Shown here piece by piece: positions 31,085-32,323 of a stretch of DNA of 64,000 nt. Origin of the DNA: Planctomycetota bacterium (GTDB lineage Bacteria > Planctomycetota > UBA8742 > UBA2392); contig JAGQRH010000005.1 in assembly GCA_020425605.1 (NCBI GenBank), positions 75,850 through 139,849 of the forward strand, read 5' to 3'. Below the pieces are notes generated by a model, which was given only the letters and a program-made list of their open reading frames with translations, was not told the origin of the DNA and made no database searches. The stretch's first letter is position 1; each line of letters begins with the position of its first letter. The translations under genes were made by a program, and so were the position numbers.

Positions 31085-32323
31085 CTAGTCGTCCTCAACG
31101 CTCCAGTCGAGGTAGCGTTGCATCTCCTGCGGGCTGGTGCCCGGCCGGATGTAGGTCTTTGCGCGTTCAAAGTCCGCGAGTGTCAGCGGGCGTACTTTCA
31201 CCTGGTAGTTGCGCGTAGCGGCGAGTCCGGTGTCGATCAGGTCGGGCAGGTCCTCGTTCAACTGGCCGATCATCTGCGACGTCGCCTGCTTGCAGAGGCG
31301 CTCGATTTCTCGGCCGGAATAGCCGACCGTGTCGTCGATCAGTTCCTTGAGGTCAAACTCAAGCTGATAGCCCTTCTTCAGAAGCTGGATGCTGAGGATG
31401 GCTTCACGTGTCTCTTCATCGGGCAGCGGAATCAGGATCTGCTTCTCGAAGCGGGACATCACGGCTGCGTCAATTTCCCACGGCCGGTTGGTTGCGGCGA
31501 TGGTGAGCACGAAGATGTCGCTGCGGCCTTTCTCGGCCAGCCCGTCAAGCTCGGCCAAAATGGTCGAAAGAATGCGGCGCTCTGCCCCGGTCTGCTCGGA
31601 GTCGCGGTTGCTGGTCAGTGACTCGAATTCGTCGAGGAACACGACGCTGGGGCTGTTGTCGCGCGCGGCGCCATAGATCTCGCTGATGATCTTGCTGCTT
31701 TCGCCGAAATACTTGCTCAGCACGCCGCTGACTTTCACGTTGAAGAACAGCGCCTGGCCTTCGGTGGTGACCTTCAGGCTATTGCTGGTGGCCGCTGCAA
31801 GCAGGGTCTTGCCGGTGCCCGGCGGGCCGTAGAACAGCATGTTTCGGAAGGTCGTGATCTTCACGCCCTCGGGTGGCTTCGCGAGCGACAGGCCGAGCGT
31901 GTACTTGATGTCGCGCTTGGTTTCTTCAAGTCCACCGATATCGTCCCAGGTGATCGTGCTGGTGTGGACCAGCGCCGAGACGGCTTCGCTGATGTTGCTT
32001 TCGGGCTCGCCAGCGGTGGTTTCGTGGCTGCGATTCTCATCCACGTGGCTGCTGGGGGGAGACGGCAGCTTGGCCTTGCCGCTTTCCGGCTTCTCGATGC
32101 CGACTTCGCGCAGGCGCCGGGCGAAATCTCGGTACTCGATTGCCTTGCGCTTCCGGGCGTACTCCATGCTGCGCGACTGGGCGTGCTCGGCAAACTTGAA
32201 CATGGTCTTGCTGGCCGACTCGAAGTTCGCGGCGGCCGTCTCCGAATCGCCTGCCTTCCAGGCCATCTTGGCCTTGTGCAGGGCGTCGTCGCAGGCGCGT
32301 TTGAGTTTGGGTCCTAAGTCCAT
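31085..32323 (-). CDS. MIT-domain + single AAA+ ATPase, Vps4/CdvC-like
   Basis: N-terminal three-helix segment ([40 protein letters not shown]...[17 protein letters not shown]). Walker A GPPGTGKT, pore loop SKYFGES, Walker B [42 protein letters not shown]. Confidence 0.8.
   Translation of the reverse strand: [412 protein letters not shown]

Follow-up and report, generated by a model that had tools for sequence, protein, structure and literature searches.

Identification and domain architecture of the ATPase

The gene analyzed here lies on a 64,000-nucleotide stretch of a Planctomycetota genome (assembly GCA_020425605.1, contig JAGQRH010000005.1, positions 75,850 to 139,849), referred to as the window. 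It encodes an AAA ATPase (AAA1) and belongs to a minus-strand operon of six genes in the order X, E3c, E3b, ATPase, Kdo-family kinase, and E3a, with intergenic gaps from X to E3a of 0, 3, 180, 6, and 62 nt. The closeness of the genes on one strand (gaps of 0, 3, 6, and 62 nt) supports an operon. The open reading frame (ORF) is probably the bacterial counterpart of the ESCRT-IV ATPase Vps4/CdvC, located in a six-gene membrane-remodeling operon of the ESCRT-III/Vps4 type. The coordinates of the genes and motifs are given in Table 1.

The ORF did not arise by chance, because hundreds of full-length homologs were found (45–99% identity) and 83 columns, including all the catalytic motifs, were invariant in the family alignment of 72 sequences. 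The nearest named homolog was a protein on JACKID010000001.1 (99% identity) from a Planctomycetota metagenome-assembled genome (MAG), and the proteins neighboring the ATPase were 100% identical to KDB90_042xx, also of a Planctomycetota MAG. An initial annotation made from the DNA sequence had described the protein as an AAA ATPase with an MIT-like N-terminus and Vps4-clade signatures. All the motif strings quoted in it were present in the ORF (residues 7–50, 57–73, 124–136, 166–173, 203–209, 227–235, 277–306, and MQRYLDWS at 401–408).

A single AAA cassette was detected by Pfam (PF00004, E 3.8e-34, residues 162–300), together with a weak AAA lid match. The AlphaFold2 (AF2) model of the whole ATPase had a predicted local distance difference test score (pLDDT) of 78. 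The linker preceding the cassette (approximately residues 77–110) was rich in Pro, Ser, and Glu and was modeled as disordered, with pLDDT below 50 at residues 78–81 and 95–109; its length and sequence varied across the family, yielding gappy and unconserved alignment columns. These results agree with the earlier description of a low-complexity linker followed by one cassette. As far as sequence and models can establish it, the protein has this architecture, an MIT fold, and intact Walker A, Walker B, pore-loop, and sensor motifs. In pore loop 1, S203, K204, F206, G207, E208, and S209 were invariant in the 72 sequences, and its aromatic–hydrophobic–Gly pattern is like KWMG of Vps4. N279 of sensor-1 was also invariant.

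The second region of homology (SRH) has no "PG" insert of the kind seen in Cdc48, PAN, and FtsH; it shows a two-residue gap relative to "RRPGRFD" of VAT, as do Vps4, CdvC, spastin, and katanin. It carries S290-R291-F292 where Vps4, CdvC, and spastin have R-R, and both S290 and R291 were invariant in the 72 sequences. The S290 codon (window 31454–31456) is at the position of the first of two adjacent arginine fingers. A further invariant residue, R338 (31310–31312), was observed in the lid motif "SGRE", for which relatives have SGSD or SGAD. S290 and R338 may alter the coupling of ATP hydrolysis between subunits.

The C-terminal helix proposed in the initial annotation was modeled by AF2 at residues 398–411, and its motif P-x-T-S...Y..W aligned with those of CdvC, spastin, and katanin (for example, "P-S-V-N-QELLKAYEAW" in CdvC and "R-S-V-S-PQTLEAYIRW" in spastin). 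The Vps4_C model (PF09336) was matched by 48 of 72 relatives at E ≤0.1 (best 4e-6). "NRPW" of AAA1 also resembles "NIPW" of Vps4 and "NKPW" of CdvC. The lid motif GYSG and the C-terminal motif were 53 residues apart, compared with 39 in CdvC, 44–49 in spastin and katanin, 75 in yeast Vps4, and 81 in VPS4B, and AF2 modeled this stretch as short helices and one strand only. Because the spacing is 53 and not 75–81 residues, the ATPase lacks the eukaryotic beta-domain, and the earlier likening of its size to that of CdvC was sustained.

Table 1. Genes, domains, and motifs of the operon (positions in the window)
Feature	Position	Strand	Basis
AAA1, Vps4/CdvC-like ATPase, 412 aa, ATG start	31085..32323	-	ORF, Pfam, AF2, neighbor-joining tree
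MIT domain, residues 4–76, three helices (predicted)	32096..32314	-	profile against PDB, AF2, Foldseek
Low-complexity linker, residues 77–110	31994..32095	-	pLDDT, alignment
Walker A GPPGTGKT, residues 166–173	31805..31828	-	invariant, 72 sequences
Pore loop 1 SKYFGES, residues 203–209	31697..31717	-	alignment of 72 sequences
Walker B VVFLDEFES, residues 227–235	31619..31645	-	D231 and E232 invariant
Sensor-1 and SRH, residues 277–306	31406..31495	-	alignments
C-terminal helix, residues 398–411, Vps4_C-type element	31091..31132	-	AF2, Pfam, motif alignment
E3a, Snf7-family ESCRT-III protein, 201 aa	29592..30197	-	profile, Pfam
Candidate MIM1-like helix at E3a C-terminus, D184–V195, DREIARELGEDV	29613..29648	-	pattern search
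Kdo/WaaP-family (protein-kinase-like) kinase, 272 aa	30260..31078	-	Pfam PF06293
E3b, coiled-coil protein, 205 aa	32504..33121	-	ORF, synteny
E3c, coiled-coil protein, 223 aa	33125..33796	-	ORF, synteny
Gene X, orphan protein, ~257 aa	33800..34573	-	ORF; gene call in near-identical genome

N-terminal MIT domain

A profile of residues 1–74 was built from 34 sequences and searched against all PDB sequences, and the same alignment was used as the input to AF2. The region was modeled as a three-helix bundle (pLDDT 95.7; predicted template modeling score 0.81) with helices at residues 4–23, 27–45, and 51 to approximately 73/76, the third of which has a net charge of +5. The top PDB matches of the profile were the MIT domains of VPS4B and VPS4A (E 2.2e-4 to 4e-3), followed by TPR designs. 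The alignments to VPS4A/B ran end to end, pairing positions 4–75 with 6–77.

In the Foldseek search of the MIT model against the PDB, the first rank was taken by the MIT domain of Sulfolobus CdvC bound to CdvB (2w2u_A), which superposed with TM-scores of 0.85/0.84 and a root mean square deviation of 2.1 Å over 74 columns. The next matches were VPS4B, VPS4A, yeast Vps4, MITD1, the katanin p60 N-domain, the MIT domain of an oomycete chitin synthase, and NRBF2. Nearly all the best matches were MIT domains, with probabilities of 1.00; the E-values were weak (~0.07), as expected for a helical domain of 74 residues. In a single-sequence phmmer search, residues 7–353 of the ATPase were collinear with residues 8–354 of VPS4B, which ranked first among the single-AAA proteins of the PDB list. 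Judging from the profile and the model, residues 1–74 are a real MIT domain, and the three-helix N-terminus that had been read by eye was reproduced in the prediction.

Placement of the AAA domain

The ranking of PDB and NCBIfam scores was tried as a clade test and dropped, as two-domain Cdc48 proteins add up the scores of two domains. The ATPase scored 169 bits with CDC48, 166 with PAN, and 152 with CdvC in NCBIfam, and its top PDB sequence matches were VAT and p97; a genuine CdvC used as the query likewise ranked VAT and p97 right after itself. Foldseek with the whole model was unable to assign the clade because katanin (the top match, 6b5c), p97-D2, FIGL1, spastin, and Vps4 scored alike (E ~1e-18). 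Since the score rankings did not discriminate between clades, a tree was built.

The neighbor-joining (NJ) tree was calculated with 300 bootstraps on alignments trimmed to 272 or 215 columns and with 12 reference sequences, among which there was no Asgard or euryarchaeal Vps4. The references for yeast Vps4, human spastin, katanin p60, Methanocaldococcus jannaschii PAN, and Escherichia coli FtsH were validated against PDB chains (collinear, 2.1–2.2 bits per residue). The human VPS4B reference lay outside this validation, 2zam_A having aligned to the yeast Vps4 segment of the query, and so did the p97 D1/D2 references. The CdvC references were read from alignments to 4lcb_A and 4d80_A, and VAT D1/D2 from the phmmer alignment of the ATPase. 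AAA1, AAA2 (a paralogous ATPase described below), Vps4, katanin, spastin, and CdvC formed a clade with 92–94% bootstrap support, and AAA1, the family of the window's ATPase, was monophyletic with 100% support. Grouping of AAA1 with Cdc48-D2 or PAN occurred in 0–1% of the replicates. According to this tree, the AAA domain belongs with Vps4, katanin, spastin, and CdvC and not with Cdc48, PAN, or FtsH, as the initial annotation had held. The "PG" indel is weakened as a clade marker because AAA2 has "RPGRFDE" and yet falls in the same clade.

The scores that slightly favored CDC48 and PAN over CdvC, the top PDB sequence matches to VAT and p97, and the position of p97-D2 beside katanin in Foldseek could also be read as signs of a Cdc48/PAN-type general unfoldase or quality-control ATPase, whose bundle would be a generic adaptor and whose linkage to coiled-coil genes would be incidental. 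We consider this very unlikely. The Cdc48 scores sum two AAA domains, genuine CdvC ranks in the same way, and the tree hardly ever places AAA1 with these families. The ATPase has neither a Cdc48-type N-domain nor a PAN-type coiled-coil/OB domain, its SRH is free of "PG", its MIT fold is specific, its linkage to a Snf7 gene is kept across three phyla, and the operon contains no protease gene.

Partner proteins

The initial annotation had referred to three ESCRT-III-like proteins. All three ORFs exist, and E3a was recognized as a member of the Snf7 family; for E3b and E3c, membership in ESCRT-III could not be demonstrated. The eight best PDB matches of the E3a profile were CHMP3 (9e-5), Snf7, and CHMP2A, and they were followed only by two unrelated weak matches (E 0.69 and 2.9); PspA/Vipp1 was not matched in this search. 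Pfam Snf7 (PF03357) was found in 20 of 30 E3a members (best 5e-10), and many E3a homologs carried a precomputed PF03357 annotation, one of them being named "Snf7 family protein" by NCBI. The N-terminal MGIFKSKEE, basic N-half (+8), and acidic tail (−11) of E3a fit ESCRT-III. From these profile matches, E3a is a true Snf7/ESCRT-III protein.

A MIM1-like pattern, defined as (D/E)xx(hydrophobic)xxx(hydrophobic)xx(hydrophobic), occurred within the C-terminal 45 residues in 25 of 30 E3a members. Some E3a proteins have a near-canonical MIM1-like tail, for example, DDEIAERLKKLEKEL at a Kuenenia-labeled locus. By its sequence pattern, the helix would serve to recruit the MIT domain, and the charges of the E3a, E3b, and E3c tails (−10 to −16) are complementary to that of MIT helix 3.

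At its N-terminus, E3b carries FFxxLFG; its N-half is basic (+10) and its tail very acidic (−16). E3c has an acidic tail (−10) ending in ...LE. Both share FxxLFG-type N-termini, coiled coils, an ESCRT-III-like size, and a basic-then-acidic layout, and their tails contain conserved short helices. A weak Pfam Snf7 match (E 0.0077) was found in one of 24 E3c members. In terms of sequence features, E3b and E3c are ESCRT-III-like in outline only.

Distribution and synteny

When 185,579 species were scanned, each represented by one genome, 247 related stretches were found; locus counts refer to the best 80, and linkage counts to those loci with enough flanking sequence (73 or 68). By label, the 80 loci comprised 68 from Planctomycetota, 5 from Acidobacteriota, 4 from Chloroflexota, and 3 unlabeled. 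The Planctomycetota loci include Candidatus Brocadiia and Kuenenia, with the anammox lineages L033 and L043. The core set of E3c, E3b, ATPase, and E3a recurred, whole or partial, in most of the 80 loci. E3a was found within 2.5 kb downstream of the ATPase at 51 of 73 loci, and E3b and E3c were each found upstream of it at 39 of 68. At the acidobacterial loci, E3a-AAA2 was upstream of E3c-E3b-AAA1, and thus the gene set was kept while the order was changed. The linkage of the ATPase and E3a genes is conserved across three phyla.

At many loci, the paralogous ATPase AAA2 directly follows the Snf7 gene (for example, L028:7790-8908, L043:7913-9028, and L050:2297-3436); no AAA2 copy was found in the 64-kb window. 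The N-terminus of AAA2 is MIT-like, and the top PDB match of its profile was the oomycete chitin synthase MIT domain (E 2e-4). The pore loop of AAA2 reads SKWVGE, and its SRH is of the classical "LRPGRFDEK" type. Its Vps4_C match exceeded the Pfam cut-off, and AAA2 formed its own clade beside AAA1 in the NJ tree.

Observations weighing against the assignment

Several observations weigh against reading the ATPase as a Vps4/CdvC counterpart in an ESCRT-III-type operon. The NCBIfam scores gave no separation of the clades, and the whole-model Foldseek matches of the five families were equivalent. The tree, calculated by a simple distance method, had few outgroups and left the branching order within the Vps4/katanin/spastin/CdvC clade unresolved. 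The ATPase site is not fully canonical because the first SRH arginine is an invariant serine. The Pfam MIT model (PF04212) had no match in the ATPase or 72 relatives and was superseded by the profile and structure searches; Vps4_C was matched by the relatives counted above, and the window's ATPase scored 16.2 bits, below the cut-off of 21.3 (E 0.011, residues 374–408). The distribution of the locus is patchy, and therefore it does not represent a universal planctomycete machine; this patchiness, together with its occurrence in phyla other than Planctomycetota, speaks against a universal role in division.

The partner proteins add further points on this side. The Snf7 score of the window's E3a was 20.9 bits, below the cut-off of 27.3, and its tail (DREIARELGEDV) is degenerate and did not match the MIM1-like pattern. 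E3b had no Pfam or PDB match with either its profile or its family members, and the E3c profile had no ESCRT-III match in the PDB. A search of 1.84 billion representative proteins with the E3b profile found 78, none of which was recognized as Snf7. In hhalign comparisons with E3a, controlled with reversed and shuffled sequences, the scores for E3b and E3c were 23.2 and 19.7 against shuffled maxima of 21.8 and 19.3, which was not significant. With the PDB profiles, Pfam, hhalign, and the exhaustive E3b search negative or non-significant, apart from the weak match of one E3c member, homology of E3b and E3c to ESCRT-III could not be demonstrated.

E3b and E3c are orphan families with no detectable ESCRT-III homology, adjoin the ATPase upstream at more than half of the loci, and have tails that are the most acidic of all and contain conserved short helices. 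These features could also be read as signs that the ATPase is a meiotic-clade severing enzyme, analogous to katanin or spastin, that acts on a non-Snf7 filament made of E3b, E3c, or X; JGI also labels relatives "katanin p60". This reading has a slim chance in our estimation. Linkage to the ATPase is more widespread for E3a than for E3b and E3c, E3a is a true Snf7 protein with a MIM1-like tail in most members, and no tubulin gene was found nearby. Moreover, E3b and E3c may simply be divergent ESCRT-III proteins because they share the size, FxxLFG-type N-termini, and basic-then-acidic layout.

Other genes of the operon and its surroundings

In the near-identical genome, the six genes were called on one strand as X (257 amino acids), E3c (223), E3b (205), ATPase (412), kinase (270), and E3a (201), and the neighbors of the operon were a divergently oriented ABC exporter and a convergently oriented AHSA1 gene. 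The kinase matched Pfam PF06293 (9e-27) and an RfaP-like NCBIfam model (2e-36, below the cut-off). Its gene lies between those of the ATPase and E3a at 15 of 73 loci, only in the sublineage of the window. This Kdo/WaaP-family kinase might regulate the system or might belong to unrelated lipopolysaccharide chemistry.

Gene X heads the operon, and its stop codon abuts the start of E3c. Its own start codon is ambiguous (ATG at 34573 or 34543). Close relatives keep the gene at this position 5′ of E3c, and in distant relatives its conservation there is weak. It had no Pfam match and no PDB match. By eye only, its conserved C-terminal 70 residues resemble a winged helix.

Within the 180-nt spacer that separates E3b from the ATPase lies an ORF of 34 amino acids with one predicted transmembrane helix (MFKSRKVRTEEWVFLLFVLCATLAVMFFSYSYTH; window 32346–32450, minus strand), which was annotated as a gene in an identical metagenome contig. 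It had no homolog among 80 related loci and, lacking conservation, was dropped as an operon component; in the closest genome, the spacer is only 10 nt. A scan of the operon for promoters and terminators gave only background levels.

The locus is surrounded by housekeeping genes (murD, groES/EL, and the ornithine carbamoyltransferase gene), with a uniform G+C content of 0.59–0.64. In the window, murD (27693–29114, plus strand) adjoins a PEGA-domain gene (27170–27691, plus strand) and lies outside any dcw cluster. A gene for a baeRF-family (bacterial eRF1-like) protein was observed in the near-identical genome at L082:20068-21195, ~9 kb from the ATPase.

These surroundings also bear on whether the operon could be an IetA-like anti-phage defense system built on an AAA ATPase, which we regard as most improbable. 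The PADLOC IetA models matched the AAA core with 116 bits, and the NCBIfam IteA model gave 108 bits against a cut-off of 510; these matches cover the generic AAA core only. None of the five partner proteins matched PADLOC models, no IetS-type protease was found, and the operon lies in the housekeeping context described above and is stably syntenic across phyla. The domain architecture, tree, and synteny speak against both the defense and the unfoldase readings, as does the lack of protease or defense partners.

Comparison with known systems

The closest known system is crenarchaeal CdvB/CdvC, followed by eukaryotic/Asgard Vps4 with ESCRT-III. Like CdvC (2w2u, 4lcb, and 4d80), the ATPase has its MIT domain and single AAA cassette joined by a linker, ends in a C-terminal helix, and has no beta-domain; the two share the AAA clade, and the CdvC MIT domain is the best structural match of that in the window. 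In both systems, the ATPase and one or more ESCRT-III genes share one operon, and there are several coiled-coil, paralogue-like partners. They differ in that the host here is bacterial, CdvA is absent, and the Snf7 protein showed no winged-helix extension. The motif in the tail is MIM1-like, whereas CdvB has the proline-rich MIM2; the SRH has S-R instead of R-R, and there are ~14 extra residues between the lid and the C-terminal motif. The orphan partners E3b, E3c, and X, and the second MIT-AAA paralogue of many relatives, are further differences.

Eukaryotic and Asgard Vps4 with CHMP/Snf7 resemble the operon in the MIT domain, pore loop, Walker motifs, and Vps4_C element, and also in the Snf7-family E3a and the MIM1-like C-terminal helix of E3a relatives. 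In contrast, the bacterial system has no Vta1-binding beta-domain and no recognized ESCRT-I or ESCRT-II genes. With katanin p60, spastin, and fidgetin, the ATPase shares the AAA clade, an N-terminal MIT-type bundle, and the C-terminal helix; there is no tubulin or microtubule context here, and the partner is a Snf7 protein.

PspA, Vipp1, and LiaH are also bacterial membrane-associated polymers of the ESCRT-III superfamily, and membrane repair is a plausible common role; E3a differs from PspA/Vipp1 in matching Snf7/CHMP and not PspA_IM30. PspF, which sometimes occurs with PspA systems, is a sigma-54 activator that bears no relation to Vps4 and is without an MIT domain. According to reviews, PspA systems are without a Vps4-like ATPase (PMC7615534, PMC7619361). 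VPS4-like AAA ATPases have been reported in several bacterial phyla, including Planctomycetes, by transfer and were given a membrane-proximal reading (for example, ACB74714.1 of Opitutus; mSystems 2024, PMC11237479). In their operons, "snf7 is displaced" by a TPR plus six-transmembrane (6TM) protein (PMC11237479). Compared by description only, the operons of this PSP survey differ from the present one, in which the ATPase is linked to Snf7 and there is no TPR-6TM gene.

Proposed mechanism and significance

If the ATPase is the counterpart of Vps4/CdvC, E3a would form a polymer on the cytoplasmic face of the membrane, which E3b and E3c may join. The basic N-half and the MGxF-type N-terminus would bind the polymer to the membrane, leaving the acidic C-terminal tails exposed. 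The basic MIT domain would then dock on short helical tail motifs, which are MIM1-like in the E3a of most relatives, and the AAA domains would assemble into a hexamer whose pore loop (K-Y-F-G) grips the tail. ATP hydrolysis would extract subunits and thereby disassemble the polymer, and subunit turnover would remodel the polymer and hence the membrane. E3b, E3c, or X may be members of this machine. The cellular process served may be division, the formation of vesicles or internal membranes, or membrane repair.

A bolder reading is that the operon represents a genuine bacterial ESCRT machine, with E3a, E3b, and E3c as ESCRT-III-type subunits, X as an adaptor, and one or two paralogues of Vps4, which performs membrane scission in FtsZ-less Planctomycetota and was either ancient or acquired by early transfer and then elaborated. 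Its scission role would be in division, budding, or internal membranes such as those of anammox bacteria. We give this combined reading a small but appreciable chance. If it were true, "ESCRT-III plus Vps4" would not be confined to archaea and eukaryotes as their invention.

No description of the X-E3c-E3b-ATPase-kinase-E3a operon was found in full-text searches, whose coverage excludes most subscription-journal papers. Recent reviews restrict the pairing of ESCRT-III and Vps4 to archaea and eukaryotes (PMC7615534, PMC7619361), and a Vps4-like ATPase has been stated to be one that "appears absent in bacteria" (PMC7619361). A conserved bacterial operon of an MIT-AAA protein and Snf7 contradicts these statements and that on the displacement of snf7, and it bears on models that place the origin of Vps4 in the archaeal stem.

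Planctomycetota have been reported to lack FtsZ, and their division machinery is an open question (PMC6952346). The locus is of interest in this respect, as most of its hosts are Planctomycetota, including anammox lineages with internal membrane compartments. It offers concrete candidate genes for membrane scission or remodeling in Planctomycetota and a compact, possibly tractable minimal ESCRT-III/Vps4 pair.

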